Origin: a virus
Lineage: Duplodnaviria; Heunggongvirae; Uroviricota; Caudoviricetes
Length of the DNA stretch: 40,519 nt
Virus record (IMG/VR): IMGVR_UViG_2529293139_000011
Strand: one strand, 5' to 3'
Made by a program: the position numbers and the translations under genes
Shown here: positions 1,009 to 40,519 of the stretch, in pieces
Position numbering within the stretch: the stretch's first letter is position 1
Layout of the letters: every line of letters starts with the position of its first letter
The notes under the pieces: generated by a model
What the model was told of the DNA's origin: nothing
What the model saw: only the letters and a program-made list of their open reading frames with translations
Databases searched by the model: none

Positions 1009-1083
1009 GTCCTCTTAGTTAAATGGATATAACGAGCCCCTCCTAAGGGCTAATTGCAGGTTCGATTCCTGCAGGGGACACCA
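1009..1083 (+). tRNA. argW: tRNA-Arg (anticodon CCU)
   Basis: 75-nt sequence GTCCTCTTAGTTAAATGGATATAACGAGCCCCTCCTAAGGGCTAATTGCAGGTTCGATTCCTGCAGGGGACACCA; acceptor stem GTCCTCT/AGGGGAC, anticodon loop CT-CCT-AA, T-arm GGTTCGATTCC, 3' CCA. Confidence 0.9.
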
Positions 1084-1178
1084 TTTATCAGTTCGCTCCC
1101 ATCCGTACCAGTCCGCAAAATCCCCTGAATATCAAGCCTTCCGTAGATTCGCAGTTCGTCATGGTTCGCGTCAGATCG

Positions 1179-1244
1179 TTGACAGCCGCACTCCATGACG
1201 GGTAAAAAGTGGATAAAATAATTTTACCCACCGGATTTTTACCC
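1179..1244 (+). promoter_or_regulatory. Putative intS promoter and arm-type binding-site cluster (TTGACA at 1179-1184; GGGTAAAAA at 1200-1208; TTTTACCC at 1222-1229; TTTTTACCC at 1236-1244)
   Basis: Three copies of the TTTTACCC motif (one inverted) packed into the 45 bp directly upstream of the intS ATG, with a -35-like hexamer just before them. Confidence 0.4.
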
Positions 1245-2402
1245 ATGCTCACCGTTAAGCAGATTGAAGCAGCAAAGCCGAAAGAAAAACCATACCGCCT
1301 TCTCGATGGTAATGGCCTGTACCTTTATGTCCCTGTGTCAGGGAAAAAGGTATGGCAGCTTCGCTACAAGATTGACGGTAAGGAGAAAATCCTGACCGTC
1401 GGAAAATATCCGCTTATGACTTTGCAAGAGGCAAGGGATAAAGCATGGACTGCGAGGAAAGAGATCTCGGTTGGCATCGATCCGGTAAAGGCGAAAAAGG
1501 CTTCGTCTAACAACAATTCCTTTAGCGCCATTTACAAGGAATGGTACGAGCACAAGAAGCAAGTCTGGTCAGTAGGATATGCAACTGAACTTGCAAAAAT
1601 GTTTGATGACGACATTTTACCTATCATCGGCGGCCTTGAAATTCAGGATATTGAGCCGATGCAACTGCTGGAAGTAATCCGCAGATTTGAAGATCGCGGT
1701 GCAATGGAGCGAGCCAACAAAGCCCGCAGAAGATGCGGCGAGGTTTTCCGTTACGCTATTGTCACTGGTAGGGCTAAATATAACCCGGCACCTGACCTTG
1801 CTGACGCCATGAAGGGATACCGCAAGAAAAACTTCCCGTTTCTTCCTGCAGACCAGATCCCGGCATTTAACAAAGCACTGGCAACATTTTCAGGAAGCAT
1901 CGTATCGCTCATTGCGACCAAAGTTTTACGCTACACAGCCCTCAGAACAAAAGAGCTTCGTTCCATGCTATGGAAGAACGTCGATTTTGAAAACAGGATT
2001 ATCACCATCGACGCCAGTGTGATGAAGGGACGCAAAATTCATGTGGTTCCTATGTCAGACCAGGTAGTTGAACTTCTCACTACGCTAAGCTCAATCACTA
2101 AACCAGTGTCAGAGTTTGTTTTTGCCGGGCGCAACGATAAGAAGAAGCCAATCTGCGAGAACGCGGTATTACTTGTGATCAAACAAATCGGCTATGAGGG
2201 TCTGGAAAGCGGTCACGGATTCAGGCATGAATTCAGCACGATTATGAACGAGAACGAATGGCCTGCTGATGCTATTGAAGTGCAACTGGCACATGCCAAC
2301 GGCGGATCTGTGCGCGGGATTTACAACCACGCTCAGTATCTCGATAAGCGCAGAGAAATGATGCAGTGGTGGGCAGACTGGCTTGATGAAAAGGTGGAGT
2401 GA
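1245..2402 (+). CDS. intS: Tyrosine-type site-specific integrase (prophage integrase IntS)
   Basis: ORF 1209-2402; start moved to the ATG at 1245 (MLTVKQIEAAKPKEK...), which gives the 385-aa length I recall for K-12 IntS; adjacent to the tRNA att site. Confidence 0.85.
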   Translation: MLTVKQIEAAKPKEKPYRLLDGNGLYLYVPVSGKKVWQLRYKIDGKEKILTVGKYPLMTLQEARDKAWTARKEISVGIDPVKAKKASSNNNSFSAIYKEWYEHKKQVWSVGYATELAKMFDDDILPIIGGLEIQDIEPMQLLEVIRRFEDRGAMERANKARRRCGEVFRYAIVTGRAKYNPAPDLADAMKGYRKKNFPFLPADQIPAFNKALATFSGSIVSLIATKVLRYTALRTKELRSMLWKNVDFENRIITIDASVMKGRKIHVVPMSDQVVELLTTLSSITKPVSEFVFAGRNDKKKPICENAVLLVIKQIGYEGLESGHGFRHEFSTIMNENEWPADAIEVQLAHANGGSVRGIYNHAQYLDKRREMMQWWADWLDEKVE

Positions 2403-2555
2403 TCCACCTTAGCCACTATCGAAGAGCACAAAACCTTGCAATCCAGTACAAAGCTTTGTTTGTCTCAGTTTTGTCTCATCAACCACAGCAAGTCATCGAT
2501 CGATTGAGACTTGGATGATAGACTTCATGCCTTTGATTATTAGCTGATAAAAGAA

Positions 2556-2918
2556 ATGTTAAAGCTATTTGCAAAGTACACCTCGATTGGTGTGCTGAAC
2601 ACACTTATACACTGGGTGGTTTTTGGTGTATGTATCTATGCCGCGCATACAAACCAGGCTCTTGCAAACTTCGCAGGTTTCGTTGTGGCTGTGAGCTTTA
2701 GCTTCTTCGCGAATGCAAAATTCACATTCAAGGCATCGACTACAACGATGCGCTACATGTTATATGTCGGGTTCATGGGAACACTGAGTGCTACTGTTGG
2801 ATGGGCTGCTGATAGATGTTCACTTCCTCCAATTGTCACTCTTGTCACCTTCTCCGCCATCAGCCTGGTGTGCGGTTTCGTCTATTCAAAGTTCATTGTC
2901 TTTAGGGATGCGAAATGA
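2556..2918 (+). CDS. gtrA: Bactoprenol-linked glucose translocase (flippase) GtrA
   Basis: 120-aa small membrane protein ([25 protein letters not shown]...), first gene of a gtr operon; its stop overlaps the gtrB start. Confidence 0.85.
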
Positions 2919-3841
2919 AGATATCTCTTGTAGTTCCTGTCTTCAATGAAGAAGAAACGATACCAATTTTCTATAAAGCGGTACGTGAATTCGAAGAGTT
3001 GAAGCCATATGAAGTGGAAATTGTTTTCATAAATGACGGAAGCAAAGACGCTACGGAGTCAATCATTAACGCTCTGGCTGTTTCAGATCCTCTAGTGGTT
3101 CCGCTGTCATTTACACGAAACTTTGGTAAAGAACCAGCATTGTTTGCAGGGTTAGACCATGCAACAGGAGATGCTGTAATTCCAATTGATGTTGACCTGC
3201 AAGATCCGATTGAGGTTATTCCCCATCTGATTGAAAAGTGGCGGGCAGGCGCTGATATGGTGCTTGCTAAGCGATCAGACCGCTCAACCGATGGTCGTCT
3301 GAAGCGAAAAACTGCTGAGTGGTTCTATAAGCTCCACAACAAAATAAGCAATCCAAAGATCGAGGAAAATGTTGGTGATTTCCGGTTAATGAACCGTGAA
3401 GTTGTCGAAAATATTAAGCTCATGCAAGAACGCAACCTATTCATGAAGGGCGTACTGAGTTGGGTTGGAGGAAAGACTGATGTTGTAGAATATGTTCGCG
3501 CCGAACGCGTGGCGGGCAGCACTAAATTCAATGGCTGGAAATTGTGGAATCTAGCGCTTGAAGGGATAACAAGCTTTTCTACTTTCCCACTTCGTATGTG
3601 GACATATATCGGATTTGTTGTTGCAGCAGCTTCATTCTTCTATGGAGCATGGATGATTGCAGATAAAATACTCTGGGGAAATGAAGTGCGTGGTTACCCA
3701 TCGCTACTTGTCTCCGTACTGTTTTTAGGTGGAATTCAATTAATTGGAATAGGCGTGCTCGGGGAGTACATAGGCAGAATTTATATAGAGGTTAAGAATA
3801 GACCTCGTTATATCATAAAGGGCAATAAAAATGATATTTAG
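2915..3841 (+). CDS. gtrB: Bactoprenol glucosyltransferase GtrB (GT2 family)
   Basis: 308-aa [23 protein letters not shown]... with GT2 DXD-type motifs and C-terminal TM helices; overlaps gtrA and the following gene. Confidence 0.85.
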
Positions 3842-5510
3842 GAACAGACATACTCTTTTATCTATATTCGCTATTTTCATGTTGGTATTTCTTGTTGCAT
3901 TAAATACACCAATGCACTCTGATGACTATAGTTATTACTCACGAGGATTGGGGCTTGATGCGCACATTGCAAATTATATGCACTGGAGTGGGAGGATTGT
4001 AGCAGATTACGTATCTACCGGGATGTTGTCGATTGAGGATCATACCCTTAAGGCCCTCGTCAACTCTATAGGTGTAACATCACTTATTGTTCTCATTGCT
4101 GCAATACCTTCTCAATTATGTAAAGTTGAAATCAAACCATTAGTATTAATTGTTGTTTTTGCTTTATATTGGTCATGTAACCCAAATCTAGGACAGAACT
4201 CGTTCTGGGTTGTAGGAAGCGCGAATTACGCCTGGACTACACTATTTGTTTTATGTTTCATCTATTATTTTTTGAAGTGGATTGAAAACCAAAATACGAC
4301 TAAGATAGTTTCGTTATTTATTCTTGGTTTAATAGCAGGCTGCTCAAACGAAAATACCGCTGTAACTATAGCTCCATTGACAGTTGTTGTTGCAATCTCT
4401 TTATTTTACTTTAAAAAAATAAGATGGCAATATGCTTTATTACCAACGATCGGTGTCATTATTGGTTCTGTGACAATTATTCTTTCACCAGGAAACGCAG
4501 CAAGGGCGAAAAATATTGCGTTCGTTGATTGGTATGCAATGCCGTTAGGTGAGAGGCTAATAGAGCACTTTACTCATAGGTTTTGGTTTGCTTTCACATC
4601 CGCATGGCTTGTAATTGGGCTGCTGGTTATCTGTTCAATTGCATCATATGTTTTTTATCGAAGAAAACTACTTTCATTTTCTAATGCTTCATTATTTGCA
4701 TCAATCTCGTTTTTTGGGTGCTTCCTGCTTGCTAATGCCGCATTGGCTGGTGCTCCATACACTCCTCCGCGATCTTTTAGCATAGGGTTCTGTTTCCTTT
4801 TACTTTGCTTCTCCTGCCTTTTCACTTGGATAAATCAACAGGATGGCAAGATAAAAAGCACTTTATCTTACGCTATTTTATTAGTTTCACTAATTAATTT
4901 CATTGGCTCATATTATTTCGTTTATTCCGCTTATAAAAGAACAACGATCCAGCAGACACTTAGGGAGTCGTCGATTAGAGATGGTAGGAGCAATGGTTTG
5001 AAATCTATTTCTATCCCTGATTATTTCTTTACGCATCTTAAGAATTATAACGATAGATATGATAGATTTCATAATGAGGGAAGCTATGGCAGATACTATG
5101 GTATATCCAAAGCGCCATTACAAAAAGCAACCTTTGACTATTCTGGCATAGCATATAAACCAGTTTACAGTAAAGATGTGCCTCTATACGAGCGCGATAA
5201 TATCAAGTCTATTTTCATGTCACCGCAACAACCATTCATCAGTGGGACATTGATACTTGAGATTTCTAACAATATTGATGGGATTTTATCTCGTGATGGT
5301 GGCGTGAAAATCTTCTTACATATTTTAAAATCAGATGGAAGCATCGTTAACAAGGACTTTTTCCCAACTACTATAGAGCTTAATGGTAGATTCTATGCTG
5401 GAGTTGATCTTTCTGGAGTTGATATAAATGACATTAATAGCCTATTGATTGGTACATTCAATATTCATACGCGTCATCGATATACACAAACACAGATAAA
5501 GATTAATTAA
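3831..5510 (+). CDS. Serotype-specific O-antigen glucosyltransferase, GtrC-like (polytopic membrane N-terminal part plus a soluble C-terminal domain)
   Basis: 559-aa ORF in the third position of the gtr operon; strongly hydrophobic N-terminal ~380 aa, AT-rich codon usage typical of acquired gtrC genes; this family is highly variable so exact specificity is unknown. Confidence 0.65.
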
Positions 5511-5513
5511 TAC

Positions 5514-5532
5514 AGGCCCGAAAGGGCCTTTT
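5514..5532. terminator. Hairpin between the convergent gtrC-like and tailspike genes (GGCCCGAAAGGGCC followed by TTTTT on the plus strand)
   Basis: GC stem with GAAA loop plus a T-run directly after the gtrC-like stop; the tailspike stop lies on the other side. Confidence 0.6.
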
Positions 5533-5534
5533 TC

Positions 5535-7409
5535 CTAGCTGTGCAATGAGATATCCGCACTAACGATAGATGCACTTAGATTTACCAGCACCCCTGCCGC
5601 TGTATAGAATCGCAATATAACAGATTTAGCTAAAAACTCAGGTAGAATAATTGGCCCTCCGGTTGAAGCGGGCCTTATAGTACTGCTTCTAATTGCGTTG
5701 ACTGTAACATGACTTTTAAATGCAACAGTAATCTCTCCAGTCCCCGTGATAGTTGCTGATGCTATAAGTTCAGATGAATCAGTGATTGTTATTGCGCTGT
5801 TATTACTAACTATACGTGCAAACCTATCAAAATCTACCAATAAATCGGTGACATTATCCAGGCCCTGGAAGATTGATGCTCTCGGGGTGCTGATGTTATA
5901 TACAGATATTCCTGACGCTGCGGCTGTGAATCTTATAAATGAACTCGTAGAAGCACCGCCATACAATGTTTCTGAAACTCCATCGATAGTTAATTGTGAG
6001 CAACTACCAAGCAAGAAGGCATTGCTGTCACCGCGGCCCAAAATCTTTATATTTGATACTCGCGACCGTTGGCAATTTAAGGCAATTGGCACAAGTCCGC
6101 CAGTTGTAGGAGTAACCCCAGCCTTAACTTCCATTTCAAACGATACGCCATCAATAACCAATCCAGTCAAAAGCGAGCTGTCATCAGGCGTACCAGCTAG
6201 TCCATATACTGCGTTGCCGTCATATTGTATAACTCTAACATGGCCATTTTTTATCTGACATTGATTGATTACACCATCGGCGGTATTAAGTGCTATCCCC
6301 GCATTAGCTCCGTTTATTATGAAATCATCAACAATTACACGGTTACTTTTCCTTATATTAATGCCCCACATGTTCCTGTCATTAATATTGTTATATCTGG
6401 CAATAATATTTTTAACTATGATGTCTTCACAGAAATCGCCGGCTCCCTGTATTACCGATACATAGACAGCATGCCTTCCCAAATCCCCTTTATCTGCATC
6501 TGCTTCAAAATTAACGCCATCAACGATAATTCTCTTACAGCCACCAAGCAGAACTCCATAGCCGCCAGCAACAACATCAGAGTGATAACGATTCCCTCTT
6601 GAATAGGTATCTCTAATAATACTATCTACACATCGTTGCAAGTACACAGATCCCGTATAGCCGTATGTATCCGACCCGACAATCGATATATTGCTGCTGT
6701 CTGTAAAGGTAATTGCATAGGCAACATTGTTTCCCGTAGCTGGCCCATTTGTTATTAAACCGATACAGCGAAAATCTTTTATTTTTACCCCGGTTTTCGT
6801 GTCCGCAAAAAGAGCCTGACCTTTATTGATGTTAGCTACTGAGCCGCCAAACCCTTGTATTACCTGGTAATCATCATTGATAGTTATTCTAGAATCTATC
6901 GTTTGTGCATCTGATATTTGTACATCTTGGCCATTTGAAAGAACTGCTTGAATACTGTTAGCGTAACCATCTGGTCGTCGGTCGATAGCATCTAAATCTA
7001 GCTGCAGTGTCCCGCGGTGGTTTGTGCCTATTAACTGCGAACCGGTTGATGATATTAAATTTTGCTCGAGCTGATCAGGGTCATACTTCAAAACATTAGG
7101 ATAATAAAACTGCTGCGCACCATATGCATCATAAACAGCCATAGAATGGCCTTGCACAGTTACGAACTTGGCAATCTGTCCGTTATATACCGGGTAACCA
7201 GCAGCGTTAATGATGATTGGTTGCGATACAGGAACGTGAGAGCCGTCTTCGTTCTCCACATAAACCTGAATCTGGTTTTCAGGATTTACAGGATCAGTGT
7301 CAATTTTACCGATATAAATTTTGCCATTGGCAACCGCTTTAAAAGAACGAGCCATAGTGAAGAGTTGCGAAGGCATGCTTACCACAACATTTGCGGTGAT
7401 ATCTGACAT
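5535..7409 (-). CDS. Tailspike protein (P22 gp9-like head-binding domain plus a divergent beta-helix receptor-binding domain)
   Basis: ORF 5535-7457; start moved to the ATG at 7409 ([43 protein letters not shown]...), preceded by GGAG; the N-terminal ~110 aa match the conserved P22/Sf6 tailspike head-binding domain. Confidence 0.85.
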
Positions 7410-7433
7410 TTCATTGCTCCAGACGAATGATAT

Positions 7434-7459
7434 GATGCAACCATGATGTGATTGCATAC
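7434..7459. promoter_or_regulatory. Imperfect palindrome (ATGCAACC...TGATTGCAT) in the divergent mnt/tailspike intergenic region; candidate operator
   Basis: TGCAA / TTGCA inverted half-sites ~11 bp apart between two divergent start codons. Confidence 0.25.
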
Positions 7460-7530
7460 CGAAATGGTACTATTGAGTATTTATCCAGTAGGTTACGATG
7501 CCATTCCACCCAACTGGTGAGGCATCAAGG

Positions 7531-7791
7531 ATGTACAGCAAATACGACGAGGCGCAGTTTCACTTGAGACTTCCGCATGAACTCCACGCGAAAATTAAGC
7601 AGCGTGCGAAGATGAATAACAGGTCGCTGAACTCAGAGATAATTGCAGCGATTGAAGAATCATTGGCTAAACAAAGCTCTGCATCAGTTTACATTGACGA
7701 TGCAGAGCGTATGGCAGAACAACAATCTGATATGGTTAAGAAAATTGTCTTTGATACGCTCAAAGAGCTATATAAAAAAGACAGCAGCTAA
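7531..7791 (+). CDS. mnt: Mnt-like ribbon-helix-helix repressor (Arc/MetJ family)
   Basis: ORF 7498-7791; start placed at ATG 7531 after AAGGA; C-terminal part (...DAERMAEQQSDMVKKIVFDTLKELYKK) resembles P22 Mnt. Confidence 0.7.
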   Translation: MYSKYDEAQFHLRLPHELHAKIKQRAKMNNRSLNSEIIAAIEESLAKQSSASVYIDDAERMAEQQSDMVKKIVFDTLKELYKKDSS

Positions 7792-7808
7792 CCATCCGTG
7801 GCTTTCCG

Positions 7809-31271: not shown

Positions 31272-31305
31272 AATTACTCCTGTGGATTGATCCAGTCTTT
31301 CTACA

Positions 31306-31584: not shown

Positions 31585-31641
31585 ATGTAAGTATTTCCTT
31601 AACAAATAAGAAGTTATGCGCATCAACTTATGCGCGTTGTA

Positions 31642-31686: not shown

Positions 31687-31692
31687 GTGTTA

Positions 31693-31887: not shown

Positions 31888-31893
31888 ATGCAC

Positions 31894-31993
31894 TCTCCGT
31901 TATTAACCATGAACAAAGAATACTACAGGTATTCAAAGCAATCAATACTCAGGGTATTTTTAGTTTAAGTACCTTAGCTATTAGAATTAAGCT
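31894..31993. promoter_or_regulatory. OR / pR / pRM region with two palindromic operators: aatactacaggtatt (31919-31933) and aatactcagggtatt (31944-31958)
   Basis: AATAC-N5-GTATT palindromes between divergent cro and cI; candidate pR on the minus strand (TTGATT-17-TATTCT); TAGAAT just before the cI ATG suggests a leaderless cI transcript. Confidence 0.7.
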
Positions 31994-32710: not shown

Positions 32711-32727
32711 TCACGCAAGGGGCGCTT

Positions 32728-33096
32728 ATGGTTGGAACCGCTATAGCAAGCTTTTTTGGGATGTTGGCAATCTCGACAATTTACGGCTTAGCGCATGCTT
32801 TTATTGCGAAATCTCTATCAGAAAAAATAAGCCAGGCTTGGGCGCATAGATCAGCTCGTTTCATGATTCTGGTGATCATGGCAATACAAGGGATATCTGC
32901 ATTTATCCTCTATGGATCAAGCTTATACCTATTGTATCAAGGCGCGACATTTACGCCTTACACCAGTGATTACGGAACTCTATACGATGGTAGTGAAGAC
33001 ATCTCTATGGCTTGGATCGTCTTTGGCTTATCTATGGCCGTGTCTGTTGTAGCAGACATCATTAAGGTAATTCTCGTCTTAACCTTCGCTGACTAA
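32728..33096 (+). CDS. Small polytopic membrane protein co-transcribed downstream of cI (rexB position); candidate exclusion / abortive-infection protein
   Basis: ORF 32707-33096 with a TTG first codon; start placed at ATG 32728 with AAGGGG upstream; ~4 predicted TM helices; no recognisable similarity to lambda RexB. Confidence 0.5.
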   Translation: MVGTAIASFFGMLAISTIYGLAHAFIAKSLSEKISQAWAHRSARFMILVIMAIQGISAFILYGSSLYLLYQGATFTPYTSDYGTLYDGSEDISMAWIVFGLSMAVSVVADIIKVILVLTFAD

Positions 33097-33227
33097 CTCA
33101 TAATCCCGGCAGCAATAGCTATCGGGATCCACTTCACATATCCCGCATAAAAAGCACTGAACAAGCAGACACCGAAAAAAATAAATATCCTTTGTATTCA
33201 TTTGTTTATCATTATTTCATCAAAAAT

Positions 33228-33268
33228 AAATACCTTGGGTATTTACACAATAAAATACCTACAGTATT
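33228..33268. promoter_or_regulatory. OL / pL region with two palindromic operators: aataccttgggtatt (33228-33242) and aatacctacagtatt (33254-33268)
   Basis: Same AATAC-N5-GTATT consensus and spacing as at OR; candidate pL TTTACA-17-TATTCT overlaps the operators; upstream of nutL and N. Confidence 0.65.
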
Positions 33269-33315
33269 CTTTAGCCATCAGCAGGACGCTGGTAGCCAAA
33301 CGGAACAGATTGGCA

Positions 33316-33357
33316 GGCTCTTTAACATTGATGGGATTGTCCCGCCGAAATGCGGGA
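33316..33357 (+). promoter_or_regulatory. nutL (boxA GGCTCTTTAACA at 33316-33327; boxB hairpin TCCCGCCGAAATGCGGGA at 33340-33357)
   Basis: boxA-like sequence followed by a hairpin identical to the nutR boxB, upstream of N. Confidence 0.7.
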
Positions 33358-33464
33358 ACCAAAGAGTAGTTGGCTTTGGGGTGACGTGAAGTGCAGCTGC
33401 ACGACGGCAACCGGAAGATAAGCACCCGGCGCGTCACCGCCAAAGTCAATCATCGGAGGTCAAC

Positions 33465-33770
33465 ATGACAGTAGTCATTACATATCTGGCTGACGATAAC
33501 GCCAGAAATCGCCGCAGAGCACGCAGACAGGCTCAACGTGAACAGGCAATGCAAGAACAGCGACTGGCGCGAAAGATTGCGCTAAAGCTCTCTGGTTGCG
33601 TCAGAGCAGATAAAGCAGCATCACTCGGAAGCCTTCGCTGCAAGAAGGCAGAAGAAATCGAGCGTAAACAGAATCGTATTTACTACAGCAAGCCACGCAG
33701 TGAAATGGGTGTGACTTGCTCAGGCCGCCAGAAGCGACGCGGAAAATCAATTCCAGCTTATTACGATTGA
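33465..33770 (+). CDS. N: N-type antitermination protein
   Basis: 101-aa ORF with an N-terminal arginine-rich motif (NARNRRRARRQAQREQ) and a C-terminus (ERKQNRIYYSKPRSEMGVTCSGRQKRRGKSIP) resembling lambda N; preceded by GGAGG. Confidence 0.8.
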   Translation: MTVVITYLADDNARNRRRARRQAQREQAMQEQRLARKIALKLSGCVRADKAASLGSLRCKKAEEIERKQNRIYYSKPRSEMGVTCSGRQKRRGKSIPAYYD

Positions 33771-33778
33771 GGTGAGCC

Positions 33779-33943
33779 ATGCTCAAGAAAGTCAAACGCC
33801 GACTTTACAAAGAAGGTAGATATTCATGCCAATTGCCAAAATGCGACACAACAAAATGGAGTGTCGATGATTGGTGTAACTGGATAGATAGATACGGAAC
33901 TTGGTGGGAACGTATTTATTTTCGCGGCAAACCACTTATTTGA
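33779..33943 (+). CDS. Small Cys/Trp-rich hypothetical protein downstream of N
   Basis: 54-aa ORF MLKKVKRRLYKEGRYSCQLPKCDTTKWSVDDWCNWIDRYGTWWERIYFRGKPLI, translated by hand (below the ORF-track size cut-off). Confidence 0.3.
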   Translation: MLKKVKRRLYKEGRYSCQLPKCDTTKWSVDDWCNWIDRYGTWWERIYFRGKPLI

Positions 33944-33951
33944 GGTGAGAT

Positions 33952-34038
33952 ATGGAAGAAGAATTTGAAGAGTTCGAAGAGCATCCGCAGGATGTGATGG
34001 AACAATACCAGGACTATCCGTATGACTACGACTATTGA
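33952..34038 (+). CDS. Very small, highly acidic hypothetical peptide
   Basis: 28-aa ORF MEEEFEEFEEHPQDVMEQYQDYPYDYDY with GAGGTGAG upstream. Confidence 0.25.
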   Translation: MEEEFEEFEEHPQDVMEQYQDYPYDYDY

Positions 34039-34222
34039 TAAGAATCAATGGTGTGGACAATTCAAACGATGCAATGGATGCAAGTTGCAATCGGAATGCA
34101 TGGTTAAGCCTGAAGAAATGTTTCCTGTAATGGAAGATGGGAAATATGTCGATAAATGGGCAATACGAACGACGGCAATGATTGCCAGAGAACTTGGTAA
34201 ACTGAACAACAAGGCTGCCTGA
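34022..34222 (+). CDS. Small Cys-rich hypothetical protein
   Basis: 66-aa ORF with CGQFKRCNGCKLQSEC; early-left operon. Confidence 0.4.
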   Translation: MTTTIDKNQWCGQFKRCNGCKLQSECMVKPEEMFPVMEDGKYVDKWAIRTTAMIARELGKLNNKAA

Positions 34223-34261
34223 TGGTGGCCTTTATTTTTGGCATAAACAACAGAGGCTAAC

Positions 34262-34558
34262 ATGGAATTTAAAGGTACTGAAGGTAAGTGGGAAATAATG
34301 ATGGATGGCGATGAGATTAAAATCATCCAGGCAGACTCTCTTGAAAATGGCGCAGGCTGGCGTTCGTATATTGCAATCTGTGAGGAAGTTCAATGCATTG
34401 AAGATGCCAATCTAATAGCGGCAGCACCTGACCTTCTCGAAGCACTTCAGTTATTACTTAAGCAATCCAAAAATAGAACAACGACAACATATCCAGAATG
34501 GTATGGAGCTGTTAATAAAGGTTTTGCAGCAATCATCAAGGCTCTGGGAGGTGAGTAA
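34262..34558 (+). CDS. Hypothetical protein
   Basis: 98-aa ORF in the early-left operon. Confidence 0.45.
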   Translation: MEFKGTEGKWEIMMDGDEIKIIQADSLENGAGWRSYIAICEEVQCIEDANLIAAAPDLLEALQLLLKQSKNRTTTTYPEWYGAVNKGFAAIIKALGGE

Positions 34559-34758
34559 TGTGCGAGTTTTACGAAGCAGATATCAAACGCCCAGAAATGG
34601 CAAGTGATGCGACATTACGTGATTACTTCGCGGCAAAGGCTATGCAAGCAATGATTAGCAATCCATCGATTATCGATAATGATTCTGATGGAGCTGTTAA
34701 TTATGCAGCAAGCGCTGCATATAAGTTTGCAGACGCAATGCTCAAAGCTCGCGAATAA
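34558..34758 (+). CDS. Hypothetical protein
   Basis: 66-aa ORF preceded by GGTGAG; its start overlaps the previous stop. Confidence 0.4.
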   Translation: MCEFYEADIKRPEMASDATLRDYFAAKAMQAMISNPSIIDNDSDGAVNYAASAAYKFADAMLKARE

Positions 34759-34763
34759 GCACT

Positions 34764-34791
34764 GTGTATTCATTCCAACGAGTGAATACAC
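34764..34791. repeat. Perfect 9-bp inverted repeat GTGTATTCA-N10-TGAATACAC
   Basis: Read directly from the sequence; no T-run follows, so it is a candidate protein-binding site or RNA stem-loop. Confidence 0.5.
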
Positions 34792-34852
34792 GGAGCAATG
34801 TCGCTCGTAACTAAACAGGAGCCGACTTGTTCTGGTTATTTGAAATCTTCTT

Positions 34853-34880
34853 TGCCCTCCAGTGTGAGGGCAATTTTTTT
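34853..34880 (+). terminator. Intrinsic terminator in the early-left operon (TGCCCTC-cagtgt-GAGGGCA followed by ATTTTTTT)
   Basis: 7-bp GC stem plus T-run about 12 nt upstream of the next gene's RBS. Confidence 0.6.
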
Positions 34881-34892
34881 GACGGAGGATAT

Positions 34893-35861
34893 ATGAGTGA
34901 AGTAACAGATTTAGTTGTTATTGAAAAAGCAAATGCAATGACTGTATTTCAGTCTGCCGACCAGATTGAAGAAATCCTTCAAAAGGTTGAACGTGAAGTT
35001 ATGTCCTTTGTGCCTGATATCACAACGGCAAAGGGCAGAAAGGAGATCGCTTCTCTGGCGTATAAAGTTGCGCAGACGAAAACATATCTCGATGGTCTTG
35101 GCAAAGACCTTGTTGCTGAACTGAAGGAAATTCCAAAGCTAATTGATGCTAACCGCAAGACAGTGCGTGATCGCCTTGATGAGCTGAAAGCCAAGGCGCG
35201 CCAGCCTCTTACTGATTATGAGGAAGAACAGGCGCGGATTAAAGCCGAAGAAGAAGCTAAGGCAGCAGCTGAAGCTCTCGCAAAGCAAATTGAGTCTGAC
35301 CATGAAATAGCTATTTTGATGGATCGCGAATTTGACCGCCAAAGAGAAGAGGCAAGACTCAAAGCGGAGCAGGAAAAGCGAGAGCATGAAGAACGATTAA
35401 AAAGAGAAGCTGAAGAGAAAGCCAGAGCAGAAGCCGAAGCAAAGGCAAAAGCCGAAATTGAAGCAGCAGCAAGGCGAGAAGCAGAAGCTAAGGCCGCAGC
35501 GGAACGTGCAGAGCGTGAACGCATTGAAGCCGAGCAACGAGCACAGCGCGAAGCAAAAGAGGCAGCAGAACGAGCTGAAAGAGAAAAGCAGGCAGCAATT
35601 GAAGCAGAACGCAGAAAAGCACAGGAGGAGGCTGAACGAATCCGGCGCGAGGCTGAAGCAAAAGAGCAAGCCAGAATAGCAGAAGAAAAAAGAATCAAGG
35701 AAGAAGAAGAGCGTAGAGCAAAGGATAAAGCTCACCGGAAAGAAGTAAATAACAAAATACTTGCTGACCTTATCAAGGTTGGCGCATCAGAAGATGTTGC
35801 TAAAAATATCATAACAGCCATCGTAAAAGGCGAAGTATTCGCAACAAAAATAACCTACTAA
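34893..35861 (+). CDS. Coiled-coil protein with a long low-complexity Ala/Glu/Lys/Arg repeat region; function unknown
   Basis: ORF 34827-35861; start placed at ATG 34893 after GGAGG; central ~180 aa are EAEAKAKAE / RREAEAK-type repeats. Confidence 0.6.
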   Translation: MSEVTDLVVIEKANAMTVFQSADQIEEILQKVEREVMSFVPDITTAKGRKEIASLAYKVAQTKTYLDGLGKDLVAELKEIPKLIDANRKTVRDRLDELKAKARQPLTDYEEEQARIKAEEEAKAAAEALAKQIESDHEIAILMDREFDRQREEARLKAEQEKREHEERLKREAEEKARAEAEAKAKAEIEAAARREAEAKAAAERAERERIEAEQRAQREAKEAAERAEREKQAAIEAERRKAQEEAERIRREAEAKEQARIAEEKRIKEEEERRAKDKAHRKEVNNKILADLIKVGASEDVAKNIITAIVKGEVFATKITY

Positions 35862-35885
35862 TAAAACCAACATAAGGAACCACCC

Positions 35886-36017
35886 ATGATTTACGCAATC
35901 GCGGGAGGCGCTCGCATGGGTGCCTTCCAACTAAATGAATCTTTACTTGAACGAATCACCCGTAAATTACGTGACGGATGGAAAAGAGTTGAGGTCTTAT
36001 TATGCGCAATGAAATAG
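35886..36017 (+). CDS. Small hypothetical protein
   Basis: 43-aa ORF with AAGGAA upstream, translated by hand. Confidence 0.25.
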   Translation: MIYAIAGGARMGAFQLNESLLERITRKLRDGWKRVEVLLCAMK

Positions 36018-36154
36018 CCATCAATCACCAGATGCTTCGTGCAGCACAAAACAAAGCAGTAATAGCCAGATTTATTGGTGATTCAAAAATGTGGCTTGAA
36101 GCAAATAAAGAGATGAAATCAGCTATCAACCTTCCGTGGTATCGCAGGAAATGA
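36002..36154 (+). CDS. Small hypothetical protein
   Basis: 50-aa ORF MRNEIAINHQMLRAAQNKAVIARFIGDSKMWLEANKEMKSAINLPWYRRK, translated by hand. Confidence 0.25.
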   Translation: MRNEIAINHQMLRAAQNKAVIARFIGDSKMWLEANKEMKSAINLPWYRRK

Positions 36155-36309
36155 GTTTTACAGATAACTGGTCAGACGAAGAATTCATTCGTCAGATGAA
36201 AGAATTAATCGGTAACGAAGGAGATATTCATGTCACTTGCAACCACAGTGAAGGAGAGCAAGTTACAGAGACGCATGTACACGCAGAAAGCTCTCTGGTA
36301 TCGCCATAA
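36151..36309 (+). CDS. Small hypothetical protein
   Basis: 52-aa ORF MSFTDNWSDEEFIRQMKELIGNEGDIHVTCNHSEGEQVTETHVHAESSLVSP, translated by hand. Confidence 0.25.
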   Translation: MSFTDNWSDEEFIRQMKELIGNEGDIHVTCNHSEGEQVTETHVHAESSLVSP

Positions 36310-36410
36310 TGGCGACCGCGAAGGAATGCGGGTATGCCTTAATTTGTCCCGAGTCGAAGTATTAAATCAGCGTTATTTTCTTGGGCCGTGTCCATTCTGA
36401 GATCAAACAT

Positions 36411-37016
36411 ATGAGCAAAGAATTTTATGCAAGGCTGGCAGCCATTCAGGAGAATCTGAACGCGCCAAAGAATCAGTACAACTCATTCGGTAAATATAAA
36501 TACAGAAGCTGCGAAGACATTCTTGAAGGCGTTAAGCCGTTACTGAATGGCCTGTTTTTATCAATCAGCGATGAAGTTGTGTTGATTGGAGAACGGTATT
36601 ACGTGAAAGCAACGGCAACTATTACTGATGGCGAAAACAGTCATACGGCAACCGCTCTTGCACGAGAGGAAGAAAGCAAGAAAGGAATGGATTCTGCACA
36701 AGTTACTGGAGCTACAAGCTCTTATGCACGCAAGTATTGCCTCAATGGTTTGTTCGGCATTGATGATGCGAAAGATGCAGATACCGACGAGCATAAACAT
36801 CAGCAGAACGCAGCAGCAAAGCAATCAAAGCCATCACCTACACCTGAACAGGTTCTAAAAGCATTCACTGACGCAGCATTGCAGAAAAACACCGTGGAAG
36901 AGCTTAAACAGGCGTTCGCCAAAGCGTGGAAGATGCTCGAAGGCACACCGGAGCAGCACAAAGCGCAGGACGTTTACAACATCAGACGAGACGAATTAGA
37001 AGGAGCGGCTGCTTAA
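36411..37016 (+). CDS. erf: ERF-family single-strand annealing recombinase (P22 Erf-like)
   Basis: ORF 36381-37016; start placed at ATG 36411 (MSKEFYARLAAIQENLNAPKNQYNSFGKYKYRSCEDILEG...); N-terminal domain recognised as Erf. Confidence 0.8.
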   Translation: MSKEFYARLAAIQENLNAPKNQYNSFGKYKYRSCEDILEGVKPLLNGLFLSISDEVVLIGERYYVKATATITDGENSHTATALAREEESKKGMDSAQVTGATSSYARKYCLNGLFGIDDAKDADTDEHKHQQNAAAKQSKPSPTPEQVLKAFTDAALQKNTVEELKQAFAKAWKMLEGTPEQHKAQDVYNIRRDELEGAAA

Positions 37017-37399
37017 TGGCACATTCGATTACTGTAAGACTAAACAAGCCCGCAAGAGAGTTTCAGGCCGGGGAAAATATCGGATTCAACATCCGTGCTG
37101 GCGTTCAGTATTACGATCGCCAGACAAAAAAGAAAGAATGGACAAACTACAGCGCCGTTGTATTTGCCAAGCCGGGAGCGCAAGCGGATTACTACCGTAG
37201 TGTTCTTGTTGAAGGTTGCATTGTGGAAATTACCGGAGAAAACATCAGGGTTGATGTTTATCATGGGCAAAATGGTCAATCAATCACTCTTGAATTACTG
37301 AATGCAAAGATTGGATTTGCAACTTCAGGAAACAGCCAACAGCAGCAAAGTAGCAATCATCAAAATAATCCTGAATACGACGATTCCATCCCATTCTGA
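37016..37399 (+). CDS. ssb: Single-stranded DNA-binding protein
   Basis: ORF 36926-37399; ATG at 37016 overlaps the erf stop (TAATG); OB-fold-like N-terminus, Gln-rich linker and acidic C-terminal tail ending DDSIPF. Confidence 0.7.
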   Translation: MAHSITVRLNKPAREFQAGENIGFNIRAGVQYYDRQTKKKEWTNYSAVVFAKPGAQADYYRSVLVEGCIVEITGENIRVDVYHGQNGQSITLELLNAKIGFATSGNSQQQQSSNHQNNPEYDDSIPF

Positions 37400-37422
37400 T
37401 TTAGAAAAATAAGGATTTAATT

Positions 37423-37716
37423 ATGCCAGCGCCTCTGTATGGTGCGGACGACGCGCGCCGCTGTTCCGGCAATTCCGTATCGGAGGTGCTGGATAAATTC
37501 AGAAAAAACTACGATCGGATAATGTCGCTACCGCAGGAAACGAAAGAGGAAAAGGAATTTCGCCATTGTATATGGCTTGCAGAGAAAGAAGAACGCGAGC
37601 GAATTTACCAGACATCAATCCGACCATTCCGCAAAGCCACATATACCCACTTCCCTGAAATTGACCCGCGCCTGCGTAATTACCGATCACGCTATGGCGC
37701 TATCAGTAATGACTGA
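37423..37716 (+). CDS. Hypothetical protein
   Basis: 97-aa ORF with AAGGA upstream. Confidence 0.45.
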
Positions 37717-37726
37717 GGAATTTACC

Positions 37727-37894
37727 ATGAGAGGACTTGCATACAATCCCGGCATTCTTCCGGCAGAAATGATTATTCGCCAACGCGTAAAGCCAATGCC
37801 ATCGAGAGAGGAATTGCTTAAGAGAAATTCTTTTCCGTCAGTGAATCAAAACAAATATCTGAATGCGATGTGGCGTAAAGGAGGCAAGCAGTGA
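37727..37894 (+). CDS. Small hypothetical protein
   Basis: 55-aa ORF from the internal ATG at 37727 (within ORF 37577-37894) preceded by GAGGAA. Confidence 0.35.
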
Positions 37895-38145
37895 GTAATT
37901 CAGCACGACTACAGCTTGCTTTTTCACCGCTATCAAAAACTATCATGCTGGCAAAAATGCGCGATGTTGAAGGTGGACGTATGCGCGTTGGCAATGATCC
38001 AGGTCGTGATGTTACCAATGAGGCTGCTCAATTGGTGTGGCAACTGGTCATGGCTGAAGGTGGTGAGATAGTGTGGGAGCTGGATGATGGTTCTCGCATG
38101 GTGTTGAAGGCAGAAAAGCAGGAGGCAACCAGTGAGCAAGATTGA
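37891..38145 (+). CDS. Hypothetical protein
   Basis: 84-aa ORF with GTG start preceded by AAGGAGG. Confidence 0.45.
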
Positions 38146-38824
38146 TTATCAGGCACTGCGTGAAGCGGCAGAGAAAGCCGGTGAAGATAAGTGGCAGGCT
38201 AAAAAAATAAATGGTGATTTTTTCGTTATTCGTCACGGTAGTTATACAAGACAGCATGGCTACACATCGTATCAACCCATTGCGGAGATTGATTGTAAGT
38301 CAGTCCGGGATTTTGTTGCCAAGGCTAATCCGGCTACCGTGCTTGCGCTTCTTGATGAACTGGAAGCTCAAAGCAAACGCATTGCAGAGCTGGAGAAAAA
38401 AGCTGCACCAGATTCGTTTGGCATCATCGGTGAAAATATTCGAACACAGGATAATCGAATAACGTCAGACCCTATGTTTTGTGTGTATCAAAAGCGCGAA
38501 ATCGTTGTTGATGCTGATTATGACTATGACCGGATTGTCTGGGTTGATGAAGATGGTAATGAAGCCAATAAACGCCAAAGTCGTCGTCTCGAACTACTTC
38601 ACGAAAACTTTCGAGAGCCACCAGAAAAATGGCGGCGCGTTGCTGTGAAAGATATTGATGAATTCGTTACCTGCTGTTTCACCGAACAGGGTTGTAAATA
38701 CTACCTAGCAGCCAATGGTCACAATCTTCGCTTGCCATTTATATATGTAAAAAGCGGTTTCAGGAACGCTGAATATATCGGCATAAGAAACTGGCTTGCT
38801 GGCATTCGCATCAAAGGAGAGTGA
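38132..38824 (+). CDS. Ead/Ea22-like protein
   Basis: 230-aa ORF (GTG start after AGGAGG); the N-terminal helical segment NPATVLALLDELEAQSKRIAELEKK is typical of Ea22-like prophage proteins as I recall them. Confidence 0.55.
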   Translation: MSKIDYQALREAAEKAGEDKWQAKKINGDFFVIRHGSYTRQHGYTSYQPIAEIDCKSVRDFVAKANPATVLALLDELEAQSKRIAELEKKAAPDSFGIIGENIRTQDNRITSDPMFCVYQKREIVVDADYDYDRIVWVDEDGNEANKRQSRRLELLHENFREPPEKWRRVAVKDIDEFVTCCFTEQGCKYYLAANGHNLRLPFIYVKSGFRNAEYIGIRNWLAGIRIKGE

Positions 38825-38825
38825 T

Positions 38826-39068
38826 ATGGCAACTTTGACAAAAAAGGAACAGGCATGGTTGAGCGAATTACAGAACGTTCTTGATCGCTGCCCGTCACCG
38901 AAAAAATTGGTTTTTACACCATTGGCGATAAAAGCATTTACCTGTATGACCTGCGCCGCATGGATGAAATCATGGAGGCTCTTGATAATCGTTCGTCGAT
39001 GGATTGGTGTGTTGCTGTTCATGATATGAATGCAGGGTTTGATGAAAAGATTTTGTTCCCCTCATCAG
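38826..39068 (+). pseudogene. Possible frameshifted small gene (frame change at or near the A6 tract at 38901-38906)
   Basis: Frame 0 from ATG 38826 gives MATLTKKEQAWLSELQNVLDRCPSPKK... then an implausible tail; the -1 frame from the A-run gives protein-like ...IGFYTIGDKSIYLYDLRRMDEIMEALDNRSSMDWCVAVHDMNAGFDEKILFPSSVESTAG ending at 39068. Confidence 0.35.
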
Positions 39069-39098
39069 TTGAAAGCACTGCGGGTTAAGGAGTAACAC

Positions 39099-39695
39099 AT
39101 GACCACTATTACCAAAGAACGTATTGAATTGTTCATTAAAAATCCGCTTGAAAACGGACTTACCCGTGGCGAACAAATGGAACTGGCACGAATTGCTCTG
39201 GCATCGCTGCAACGCGAACAGATTCGCCACGAGCATGCCAAATGGTCTGACTCCACATTTGGCTGCGTTGGCCCCATTGGTCCGCTGAAACATCTCTCAA
39301 AAGAGGCACTGGAAGCCGCAGCCGAACCAGACGATCTTAGCGAGTGGGCTGATATGCAGTTTCTGTTGTGGGATGCACAGCGCCGTGCTGGCATCAGCGA
39401 TGCTGAAATTACCGCTGCTATGGAAGATAAATTGAAGATCAACATGGAGCGCCAGTGGCCTGAGCCAAAAGATGGTGAGCCTCGCTTGCACATTAAAGAA
39501 CCCGGCAACTCTCCGGTAATTCCGGATGGTTGGGTTATGGTGCCGAAGGAGTTAACCCCGGAAATGATGAGAGCCGTTCAGATTAGAAGTGAGCTTGGAG
39601 GGTATGCCACTTCCAATCTATCTGGTGCATACAATATGTTTTCTGAGTTCTGGAATGTTGCTGTCTCAGCTGCGCCTAAGGTGGATGATTTATGA
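39099..39695 (+). CDS. DUF550/DUF551-type prophage protein (putative MazG-like nucleotide pyrophosphohydrolase domain)
   Basis: 198-aa ORF; family assignment is from memory of lambdoid prophage annotations and is tentative. Confidence 0.45.
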   Translation: MTTITKERIELFIKNPLENGLTRGEQMELARIALASLQREQIRHEHAKWSDSTFGCVGPIGPLKHLSKEALEAAAEPDDLSEWADMQFLLWDAQRRAGISDAEITAAMEDKLKINMERQWPEPKDGEPRLHIKEPGNSPVIPDGWVMVPKELTPEMMRAVQIRSELGGYATSNLSGAYNMFSEFWNVAVSAAPKVDDL

Positions 39696-39994
39696 ATCTA
39701 TATCGCTGCCCATTCTGTGGTTCCACTGTGCTTAACATCGGATACTCATTCAGTATCAGAGGGAAAATGCGCTATGTGTCATGCAAATGTGGTGCCCAAG
39801 GACCAGAAAAACGAACTAAATCTGAAGCGATTTCTTCATGGAATAGTCGAATGAAAGTATGGGTTTATGATCCAGAAACCATATTAAACGCTGAAGAGCG
39901 CAGGAGAACGGAAGTCTATATTCATAACCTTAATGAAGATGGATTTACACCAGTGCTTGTAAAGGCTACTCCGCAGGAGGTTAACCATGGCTAA
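39692..39994 (+). CDS. lar: Lar-family restriction alleviation protein (zinc ribbon)
   Basis: 100-aa ORF MNLYRCPFCGSTV...CKCGAQGPEKRTKSEAISSWNSR; the CPFCG...C.CGA...EAI..WN.R pattern matches Lar-like proteins. Confidence 0.6.
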   Translation: MNLYRCPFCGSTVLNIGYSFSIRGKMRYVSCKCGAQGPEKRTKSEAISSWNSRMKVWVYDPETILNAEERRRTEVYIHNLNEDGFTPVLVKATPQEVNHG

Positions 39995-40094
39995 CCTGCA
40001 ACTTGCCGTCAAAGGTGAATAACAATCCTCGCACTCGCGGGGATTTCTTTTATCTGAACTCGCTACGGCGAGTTTTGTTTTATGGAGATGATAA

Positions 40095-40262
40095 ATGCAC
40101 TTCCGAGTCACAGGTGAATGGAATGGAGAACCATTCAACAGAGTTATCGAAGCAGAGGACATCAACGACTGCTATAACCACTGGATGATATGGGCGCAGA
40201 TAGCGCATGCAGACGTAACCAATATTCGAATTGAAGAACTGAAAGAACACCAAGCCGCCTGA
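40095..40262 (+). CDS. Small hypothetical protein
   Basis: 55-aa ORF MHFRVTGEWNGEPFNRVIEAEDINDCYNHWMIWAQIAHADVTNIRIEELKEHQAA with GGAG 7 nt upstream, followed by a terminator. Confidence 0.4.
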   Translation: MHFRVTGEWNGEPFNRVIEAEDINDCYNHWMIWAQIAHADVTNIRIEELKEHQAA

Positions 40263-40276
40263 TGGCGGTTTTTATT
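40254..40276 (+). terminator. Intrinsic terminator (GCCGCC-tgat-GGCGG followed by TTTTTATT)
   Basis: GC hairpin plus T-run overlapping the stop of the preceding small ORF, upstream of torI. Confidence 0.6.
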
Positions 40277-40283
40277 GCCTGAT

Positions 40284-40299
40284 TTGCAGGTTCGATTCC
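40284..40299 (+). repeat. 16-nt direct repeat (TTGCAGGTTCGATTCC) identical to the argW T-arm segment at 1054-1069; candidate att core or att-related site
   Basis: Exact 16-mer match to the tRNA found by eye; lies 19 nt upstream of the torI start. Confidence 0.5.
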
Positions 40300-40318
40300 C
40301 TATTCGGAGATAGCACTC

Positions 40319-40519
40319 ATGCAACACGAACTACAGCCTGATTCACTGGTTGATTTGAAATTCATCATGGCCGATACTGGCTTCGGTAAAACCTTCATCT
40401 ACGACCGGATTAAGTCCGGCGACCTGCCAAAAGCCAAAGTTATCCACGGACGAGCAAGATGGTTATATCGTGACCATTGTGAATTCAAAAATAAGCTCTT
40501 AAGCCGCGCTAATGGGTAA
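40319..40519 (+). CDS. torI: TorI-type excisionase / recombination directionality factor
   Basis: 66-aa ORF MQHELQPDSLVDLKFIMADTGFGKTFIYDRIKSGDLPKAKVIHGRARWLYRDHCEFKNKLLSRANG recognised as E. coli TorI (AlpA/Xis-like winged helix); the window ends at its stop codon. Confidence 0.85.
   Translation: MQHELQPDSLVDLKFIMADTGFGKTFIYDRIKSGDLPKAKVIHGRARWLYRDHCEFKNKLLSRANG

Follow-up and report, generated by a model that had tools for sequence, protein, structure and literature searches.

A mosaic, apparently complete P22-like prophage in the 3' end of argW in Escherichia coli

Several P22-like phages integrate at the tRNA gene argW. Sf6, HK620 and CUS-3 are named as argW-integrating phages that carry one type of Int/TorI recombination module, and the KplE1/HK620 form of this module has been studied experimentally (PMC2951348). 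Kapi1 is also integrated at argW, is inducible with mitomycin C, and both uses and modifies the O-antigen (PMC8787464). In E. coli K-12, the site holds only the decayed element CPS-53/KplE1 (PMC2951348), which in MG1655 is 10.2 kb long, lies between argW and dsdC, and consists of intS, yfdGHI, tail-fibre fragments, a few yfd genes and torI. A preliminary description of the DNA analysed here had mentioned both the use of argW by phages such as Sf6 and the K-12 remnant, and both agree with the published accounts. This DNA, hereafter the window, is the 40,519-nucleotide virus record IMGVR_UViG_2529293139_000011. It holds an apparently complete, 39.5-kb P22-like prophage of the Sf6/HK620 type (genus Lederbergvirus), inserted in the 3' end of argW.

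It is highly likely that this element is a complete and probably inducible P22-like prophage, where "intact" describes its sequence. Its gene content, gene integrity, matching cis-acting sites, integration site and both att cores were observed directly. Its activities and its inducibility are assigned by homology with HK620, Sf6, P22, lambda and KplE1. The preliminary description had proposed an apparently intact P22/Sf6-like prophage at argW, and all sequence tests run support it: the virion genes are of Sf6 type at 97-100% protein identity, and int, attL and torI are those of Sf6, HK620 and KplE1. Functional relatives at the same site, such as the inducible Kapi1, also speak for this reading. 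The uninterrupted module set that it listed is complete and in order from int (1245-2402) to torI (40319-40519): integrase, serotype conversion, tailspike, ejection proteins, tail, head, terminase, lysis, Q, nin, replication, immunity, early-left recombination genes and excisionase.

The integrity of the genes was assessed for 63 curated open reading frames (ORFs) by tblastn against six named phage genomes, with separate searches for gp16 and O. None of the 63 has an internal stop. All begin with ATG except two with GTG, and a Shine-Dalgarno match is detectable for 51, which bears out the earlier remark on intact starts and plausible ribosome-binding sites. For all essential proteins but the tailspike, a named phage genome encodes a full-length homologue that is 95-100% identical, and the best matches come from Sf6, Sf101, HK620, CUS-3, HF4s, HK97 and lambda. 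Truncations in the portal, coat and terminase genes, which the preliminary description held to be at odds with an intact prophage, were looked for and none was found. No transposase or insertion sequence (IS) element appeared in the Pfam, PHROG or reference comparisons of the window. Split or truncated genes were considered from partial matches to the ORFs of six reference phages, and these proved to be mosaic joints, not truncations. The essential genes are full-length, without IS insertions or deletions, as expected of an intact prophage. The only disrupted ORF is the following:

38826-39089, plus strand: 87-amino-acid gene of unknown function, frameshifted; the A-run at about 38895-38900 is 1 bp short compared with related contigs

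Three near-identical contigs (L007, L009 and L010) have one extra A at this point and an intact 87-amino-acid ORF between an ead-like gene and the pyrophosphohydrolase gene. In the window, the frame is lost after residue 27, and the gene lies in the dispensable early-left region. Between the window and contig L011, which was assembled independently from related reads, the only differences are three further homopolymer indels (35686, 38840 and 38911), and the frameshift may therefore reflect a sequencing error and not a mutation.

The left boundary and the recombination genes of the prophage are the following:

1009-1083, plus strand: argW, tRNA-Arg(CCU), the integration target (ARAGORN; Rfam tRNA, 63 bits)
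1069-1084, no strand: attL core CTGCAGGGGACACCAT, 16 bp, which shares bases with the 3' end of argW and is identical to the attP core annotated in HK620 and Sf6
1179-1245, no strand: attL arm with the excision/int promoter region pX and IntS arm-type repeats; HK620 pX and attP repeats 1 and 2 with 0 mismatches
1245-2402, plus strand: IntS-type tyrosine integrase, 385 amino acids, full-length, 98.2-99.5% identical to the Sf6, HK620, HF4s and CUS-3 integrases
40274-40312, plus strand: pI promoter with cII-binding site; HK620 pI, 0 mismatches
40319-40519, plus strand: torI/xis recombination directionality factor, 100% identical to Sf6 gp18 and HK620 HkaC

The core CTGCAGGGGACACCAT is also the published KplE1 core (PMC2951348). 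Bases 1-933 of the window are yfdC, whose product is 99% identical to the E. coli JB2 copy. Everything from the attL core to the last base of the window, the end of the torI stop codon, is phage DNA. The integrase is closest to that of CUS-3 (99.5%) and is 98.7% identical to that of Sf6. The right end was read in the source scaffold, which was reached by an exact-protein look-up with the 198-amino-acid dATP/dGTP pyrophosphohydrolase. Over 11,421 bp, window positions 29099-40519 show 100% identity to this scaffold (GL871772.1, assembly GCA_000190815.1). A second look-up with the GtrC-like protein gave the same scaffold and the same window origin, 2356020; therefore, the window is one contiguous piece, GL871772.1 2356020-2396538. 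The 16-bp core recurs in the source contig 74 bp past torI (11495-11510 of contig L008), preceded by the last HK620-type arm repeat, and the prophage is thus 39,524 bp from core to core, close in size to Sf6 (39,043 bp), HK620 (38,297 bp) and CUS-3 (40,207 bp). The window has exact copies of attP repeats 0, 1 and 2; repeat 3 was read in L008. Beyond attR, the scaffold continues with dsdC, dsdX, dsdA, emrYK and evgAS, the usual argW-dsdC neighbourhood. The locus has all parts of a KplE1/HK620-type argW recombination module, with an IntS-type integrase adjoining attL, a second core by dsdC, TorI and the arm repeats.

The control regions were examined by searching for the annotated features of HK620 in the window. 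The HK620-type immunity and early control block occupies 31306-33770, and the late control elements lie upstream of the lysis genes:

31306-31584, minus strand: cII
31561-31600, no strand: pRE, HK620, 0 mismatches
31641-31686, no strand: nutR, HK620, 0 mismatches
31693-31887, minus strand: cro, 100% HK620
31918-31983, no strand: OR1-3, HK620, 0 mismatches
31994-32710, plus strand: cI, 99.6% HK620
32728-33096, plus strand: hkaS, part of the HK620-type block
33206-33269, no strand: OL1-3, HK620, 0 mismatches
33316-33357, no strand: nutL, HK620, 0 mismatches
33465-33770, plus strand: N, 96% HF4s; its N-terminal 64 amino acids 98% HK620
24778-24820, minus strand: qut site and terminator hairpin, HK620 qut, 0 mismatches
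24835-24870, minus strand: late promoter pR', HK620 pR', 1 mismatch
24913-25536, minus strand: late antiterminator Q, lambda type, 207 amino acids, 99.5% lambda Q and 98.6% HK620 Q

The pL, pR and tIMM sites also match HK620 exactly, and cI and cro are 99.6-100% identical to those of both HK620 and HF4s. The preliminary description had called the immunity operators distinct. This did not hold, as OL1-3, OR1-3, pL, pR, nutL, nutR and pRE all match HK620 with 0 mismatches and the immunity is that of HK620. A lambda-type pR'/qut follows directly after the lambda-type Q; the stretch from Q to pR' is 94.7% identical to lambda, and the Q-S spacer is 433 bp, as in Sf101. A search of the window with Rfam found only tRNA, and the Q-S spacer is without tRNAs, unlike that of Sf6. 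All parts of a lambdoid circuit are present: cI/cro with tripartite OL and OR, N with nutL/nutR, cII with pRE/pI, and Q with pR'-qut, the proteins being 90-100% identical to their homologues. Each regulator tested sits with its predicted cognate site (CI/Cro with operators, N with nut, cII with pRE/pI, Q with qut, and Int/TorI with att). A functional phage depends on such matched pairs, whereas decaying prophages are prone to losing them.

The late operon is collinear, with the order terS-terL-portal-scaffold-coat-gp4-gp10-gp26-gp14-gp7-gp20-gp16...tailspike, and both order and full-length homology are shared with Sf6, HK620 and Sf101. Its genes, apart from the tailspike, have full-length homologues in named phages:

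7809-10544, minus strand: gp16-like ejection protein, 911 amino acids, with an N-terminal SLT lytic transglycosylase domain (Pfam SLT), 99.5% Sf101
10545-11876, minus strand: gp20-like ejection protein, 98.0% Sf101
11886-12578, minus strand: gp7-like ejection protein, 98.3% Sf101
12581-13036, minus strand: gp14, 98%
13036-13884, minus strand: tail needle with knob (gp26), 282 amino acids, 97.2% Sf6
13884-15302, minus strand: gp10, 99.4% HK620
15311-15793, minus strand: gp4, 99.4% Sf6
15768-15953, minus strand: hkbT; the block 12581-15953 is 97-100% identical to Sf6
15996-17267, minus strand: coat, 99.5% HK620 (99.3-99.5% Sf6/HK620)
17279-18163, minus strand: scaffold, 100% Sf6
18177-20303, minus strand: portal, 99.7% HK620 (99.3-99.7% Sf6/HK620)
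20306-21718, minus strand: terL, 99.6% Sf6
21715-22155, minus strand: terS, 100% CUS-3
22158-22400, minus strand: hkbM, listed with the head and packaging block 15996-22400

Coat, scaffold and portal are all of Sf6 type, and the HK620 coat terminator has an exact match in the window. The SLT domain of gp16 spans residues 7-110. The same variant of the protein is found in Sf101 and in APC_JM3.2 (99%), whereas the gp16 proteins of Sf6 and HK620 are shorter (665 and 722 amino acids) and match at most at 32% over 72% of the protein in the window, or not at all. The 39.5-kb size and the terminase homology are consistent with a short-tailed virion and headful (pac) packaging.

The lysis, nin and replication genes stand between the terminase and the immunity region:

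23262-23699, minus strand: Rz, 95.2% Sf6 and 57% lambda
23315-23500, minus strand: Rz1, embedded in Rz, 98.4% Sf6 and 40% lambda
23696-24172, minus strand: R endolysin, 99.4% HK620/HF4s/Sf101, 98.7% Sf6 and 98.1% lambda
24156-24479, minus strand: S holin, 100% Sf6 and 99.1% lambda
25533-28847, minus strand: nin region with ninI, ninH, ninG, ninF, ninX, ninE, a Dam-like methyltransferase gene, ninB and orf70, full-length, 96-100% lambda/Sf101/HF4s
28929-30305, minus strand: DnaB-type helicase P, 98.5% CUS-3
30302-31123, minus strand: initiator O, full-length, 99.3% HK97 O

The lysis, Q and nin genes had been described as lambda-identical. This stands for Q (99.5%), S (99.1%), R (98.1%) and NinB, NinG, NinH, NinI and NinE (96-99%). 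It fails for Rz (57%) and Rz1 (40%), and lambda ninC and ninD are replaced by the Dam-like methylase and NinX. NinX itself is only 65% identical to its match in HF4s. The ninE gene is intact in the window; it is annotated as frameshifted in a related prophage of strain DETEC-P61. Four iterons of 16-22 nucleotides, spaced 20-24 bp apart, lie inside O at 30699-30784, where a lambdoid origin is expected.

Next to int lies the O-antigen modification cluster, followed by a convergent tailspike gene:

2556-5510, plus strand: O-antigen modification cluster gtrABC (homology and Pfam)
2556-2918, plus strand: gtrA, PF04138, 98% to HF4s
2915-3841, plus strand: gtrB, PF00535, 92% to HF4s
3831-5510, plus strand: gtrC-type glucosyltransferase gene, 559 amino acids, PF19528 (DUF6056/GT_STM0557_N, E 1.5e-61), phrog_20513 end to end
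5514-5529, no strand: GC-rich hairpin between the convergent gtrC and tailspike genes, found by a terminator scan on both strands
5535-7409, minus strand: tailspike, 624 amino acids, with a P22-type head-binding N-terminus (PF09008, E 4e-67) and a divergent receptor-binding part
7531-7791, plus strand: Mnt/Arc-family repressor (Pfam Arc and Repressor_Mnt), 98.8% to Sf101 gp14

The domain assignments and the homology to HF4s and K-12 yfdG/yfdH give a predicted GtrA flippase, a predicted GtrB bactoprenol glucosyltransferase and a putative serotype-specific GtrC adjoining int, the composition of a gtrABC cluster. The hairpin is likely a bidirectional terminator. The P22-type head-binding domain of the tailspike is recognised by Pfam and by matches to Protein Data Bank (PDB) structures, which cover only the N-terminal residues 17-219 (Sf6) and 17-130 (P22) of the 640-amino-acid ORF. 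The receptor-binding part (window 5535-7022, residues ~130-624) has no match in the PDB sequence search and no close relative in the named P22-like phages. Its best matches among the phage records, at 61% and 51%, are in a 150-kb record that bears the label Campylobacter phage B15 and in the 160-kb Enterobacter phage EspM4VN, respectively. A scan of IMG/VR with the tailspike returned 471 relatives, nearly all of which have only the head-binding domain in common with it, and the best full-length match is 40%. The gtrC-tailspike DNA is 100% identical in E. coli PK5074, which has an IS1 nearby. The function of the tailspike rests on its open, full-length frame and on this identical copy, and the gene probably reflects the usual exchange of receptor-binding modules.

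Twenty-two contigs encode the identical 559-amino-acid GtrC. In each of the four other places examined (among loci L096-L100), it adjoins a 624-amino-acid tailspike with the head-binding domain, and these GtrC-tailspike pairs are joined to differing gp16 modules of 612, 613, 665 or 911 amino acids. The comparison suggests that argW prophages exchange the int-gtr-tailspike block as one unit. The orphan Mnt/Arc repressor gene, between gp16 and the tailspike and without an adjoining antirepressor (ant) gene, is a reduced immI region, as in Sf101.

The mosaic structure of the prophage was mapped by blastn of the window against six references. The int end resembles Sf6 and CUS-3, and gtrA/B resemble HF4s and K-12 yfdG/H. 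The region from ~3.8 to 11 kb (gtrC, the tailspike receptor domain, mnt, gp16 and part of gp20) is almost wholly absent from the six references, except for the head-binding part of the tailspike and a brief segment within gp16. The DNA between 11 and 21.7 kb is of Sf6 type at ~97%, and terS is of CUS-3 type. The S and R genes are ~97% identical to Sf6, HF4s and CUS-3 and 93% to lambda, and Q and ninI-ninG are ~98% identical to lambda, which aligns to only 4.9 kb in all. P and O are of the CUS-3/HF4s/HK97 type, the immunity region is 98-99% identical to HK620 and HF4s, and the early-left region is a patchwork. The whole mosaic was sought in 50,697 phage records and 5,426 complete E. coli genomes, and no record covers at least 80% of either half; the best single record covers 56-62% among the phages and 74% among the E. 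coli genomes. The exact combination of modules appears to be new, while every module is known. Because this combination is absent from the phage records and complete genomes searched, the prophage is a new member of the P22-like argW group. At the sequence level, it shows all the tested features of this group. It is an ordinary mosaic, new in its combination but built from known phage modules, and does not represent a novel type of element.

Sf6 (NC_005344) aligns with the prophage over 21.3 kb (mean identity 96.5%). The two have in common the integration site and attP core, Int (98.7%), TorI (100%), the head and tail genes from terL to gp7 (97-100%, including the 282-amino-acid knobbed needle), S/R/Rz/Rz1, nin genes, gene 33, cIII/kil and lar. 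Unlike the prophage, Sf6 has the O-acetylase gene oac in place of gtrABC, other types of tailspike receptor domain, gp16/gp20 and TerS, a phage-21-type Q with two tRNAs, 434-like immunity and different O/P genes. IS911 splits the Sf6 ninG, whereas ninG is uninterrupted in the window. HK620 (NC_002730) has an identical immunity region (cI 99.6%, cro 100%, with operators, nut sites and pRE exact), the lambda-type Q with the same qut, the same int/attP/torI module and Sf6-type head genes at 99-100%. It differs in tailspike, needle, gp16/gp20, TerS, replication genes, nin region (roi and rusA) and Rz, and has an O-antigen polymerase-like gene in place of gtrABC.

Sf101 (NC_027398) has the SLT-type gp16 (99.5%), gp20 (98%), mnt (98.8%), a lambda-type Q, the same 433-bp Q-S spacer, nin genes including dam, and also erf, abc2 and orf66. 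However, its portal, scaffold and coat are of CUS-3 type, it has oac and not gtr, and its immunity and replication genes are different. Its integrase is only 21% identical, and therefore Sf101 uses another att site. CUS-3 (CP000711) is a P22-like prophage at argW with close Int (99.5%), TerS (100%), P (98.5%) and erf, but its tailspike is an endosialidase, it encodes neuO, and its coat/portal and immunity types are different. Kapi1 (MT813197), also a P22-like prophage at argW, has a 65% homologue of the Tad2-like gene described below, but only ~31-39% of each half of the window aligns to it. K-12 CPS-53/KplE1 has the same site and the same 16-bp core repeats, and its intS, yfdG/yfdH (gtrA/B) and torI are ~95-97% identical at the nucleotide level. 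The alignment covers only 2,956 bp (int, yfdG/yfdH and torI) at ~95%, and the 10.2-kb remnant is without the repressor, replication, lysis and virion genes, all of which the prophage has. The window cleanly illustrates the range of elements found at argW, from full P22-like phages down to the K-12 KplE1 remnant.

By analogy with these phages, a life cycle can be proposed. IntS would recombine attP with the 16-bp argW core, and the prophage copy of the core would restore the 3' end of the tRNA. In the lysogen, the HK620-type CI repressor, a LexA-like protein of the S24 peptidase family, would keep pL and pR shut. The gtrABC products presumably glucosylate the host O-antigen, which would blunt superinfection by phages that use the same receptor. 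Upon SOS induction, CI would cleave itself. N at nutL/nutR and then the lambda-type Q at pR'-qut would antiterminate, TorI and IntS would excise the element, and replication by the HK97-type O/P would start at the iterons within O. With a TerS of CUS-3 type and a TerL of Sf6 type, headful packaging would fill Sf6-type capsids with the DNA, after which S/R/Rz/Rz1 would lyse the cell. The tailspike, with its P22-type head-binding domain and exchanged receptor-binding domain, would set the O-antigen host range.

Several points weigh against a complete, inducible prophage. One accessory ORF is frameshifted, and attR and the last arm-type repeat are seen only in the source contig, outside the window. 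The tailspike appears to be the least well-validated essential gene, its receptor-binding part being without a close homologue in named P22-like phages. An inactivating missense or regulatory change would be compatible with the sequence, and excision, replication and particle formation are inferred. The prophage could be cryptic and recently inactivated, its induction or its production of infectious particles being blocked by a missense mutation, by faulty regulation or by a junction between ill-matched modules; the candidate junctions would be TerS/TerL and the new tailspike domain on an Sf6-type tail. Function is not readable from sequence alone. The frameshift, the lack of validation of the receptor-binding part from named P22-like phages, and the absence of the exact mosaic from the phage collection, where the best record reaches 56-62% of each half, would all suit this explanation. 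It is nevertheless unlikely. Apart from the tailspike, the essential proteins have counterparts at 95-100% identity in named phage genomes, and the tested cis sites are exact except for the one mismatch in pR'. The combination of CUS-3-type TerS with Sf6-type TerL and portal recurs unchanged in an independent JB2 prophage, the gp16/gp20/mnt block is that of Sf101, and the element is without IS insertions or deletions, unlike K-12 CPS-53.

An assembly artefact, in which several lambdoid prophages were collapsed into one locus of a draft genome, is far less probable still. The source is a draft scaffold (GCA_000190815.1), the homopolymer indels relative to L011 suggest an error-prone sequencing chemistry, and E. 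coli often has several similar lambdoid prophages (a median of three matching places per genome). However, the module junctions fall at the usual lambdoid boundaries and each is supported by other genomes. PK5074 matches 3800-9441 at 100%, JB2 has the genes of 10545-22400 in the same order at 98-100% protein identity, and L011 matches from 34232 to the end, plus the dsdC flank, at 99.95%. Both att cores are in the expected yfdC-argW...dsdC context, and the total length is a normal genome size for a P22-like phage. The preferred reading, a complete P22-like prophage, places a probably inducible element of the generalized-transducing type in a sequenced E. coli strain, with an O-antigen-modifying gtr cluster and a tailspike of uncharacterised specificity. 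Its practical value is modest, and it raises no new question: the class (Sf6, HK620, CUS-3 and Kapi1), the integration site and the recombination module are already well described.

Between Rz/Rz1 and hkbM/terS, the prophage has an accessory gene that is preceded by a terminator-like hairpin (23228-23214):

22704-23183, minus strand: accessory (moron) gene, 159 amino acids, with a C-terminal Tad2-like/DUF2829 domain (PF11195, E 2e-21)

Residues 75-159 of the product align with the whole of SPO1 Tad2 (PDB 8sme, E 1e-25), a Bacillus phage anti-Thoeris protein, and the remaining 74 amino acids form an additional N-terminal domain. The gene is absent from Sf6, Sf101, HK620, HF4s, CUS-3 and lambda. 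Its novelty was considered and rejected: the protein is 99.4% identical in phage HZ41 and ~65% identical in Kapi1, IME10, Huey and Louie, the last two of which annotate it as "anti-CRISPR", and the stretch is present at a coverage of at least 80% in 32 complete E. coli genomes. A broader proposal is tentative, and we give it somewhat less than an even chance: int-gtrABC-tailspike would form a coherent cassette for host range and seroconversion, directed at an uncharacterised O-antigen of E. coli, with a receptor-binding domain from phages of ~150-160 kb, and the Tad2-like protein would be an active sponge for immune signalling nucleotides. If both the cassette and the sponge hold, the element would be a live, transducing, seroconverting phage armed against host defence, not just an annotated island.

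The remaining accessory genes lie in the early-left region, with one in the nin region:

33779-40262, plus strand: early-left accessory and recombination genes, comprising ral, a gene-33-like gene, cIII, kil, erf, orf127, abc2, DUF2737, DUF7446, ead/Ea22-like, dATP/dGTP pyrophosphohydrolase, lar and orf55
34022-34222, plus strand: ral
36411-37016, plus strand: erf
37423-37716, plus strand: abc2, anti-RecBCD
39099-39695, plus strand: dATP/dGTP pyrophosphohydrolase (PF04447)
39692-39994, plus strand: lar
27690-28217, minus strand: Dam-like orphan methyltransferase, in the nin region

The Dam-like orphan methyltransferase, ral, the pyrophosphohydrolase, lar and abc2 form a set of accessory genes with likely roles in anti-restriction or DNA modification. 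Among ten accessory proteins searched with PADLOC, the only match was the orphan methyltransferase. In the metagenome contigs L007 and L010 (~8775-12471), DUF7446, ead, the 87-amino-acid ORF and the pyrophosphohydrolase gene recur at 99.75% identity within another lambdoid prophage, which has a lambda-type integrase (356 amino acids, Arm-DNA-bind_1) at its end and occupies another chromosomal site; this points to module exchange across integration types.

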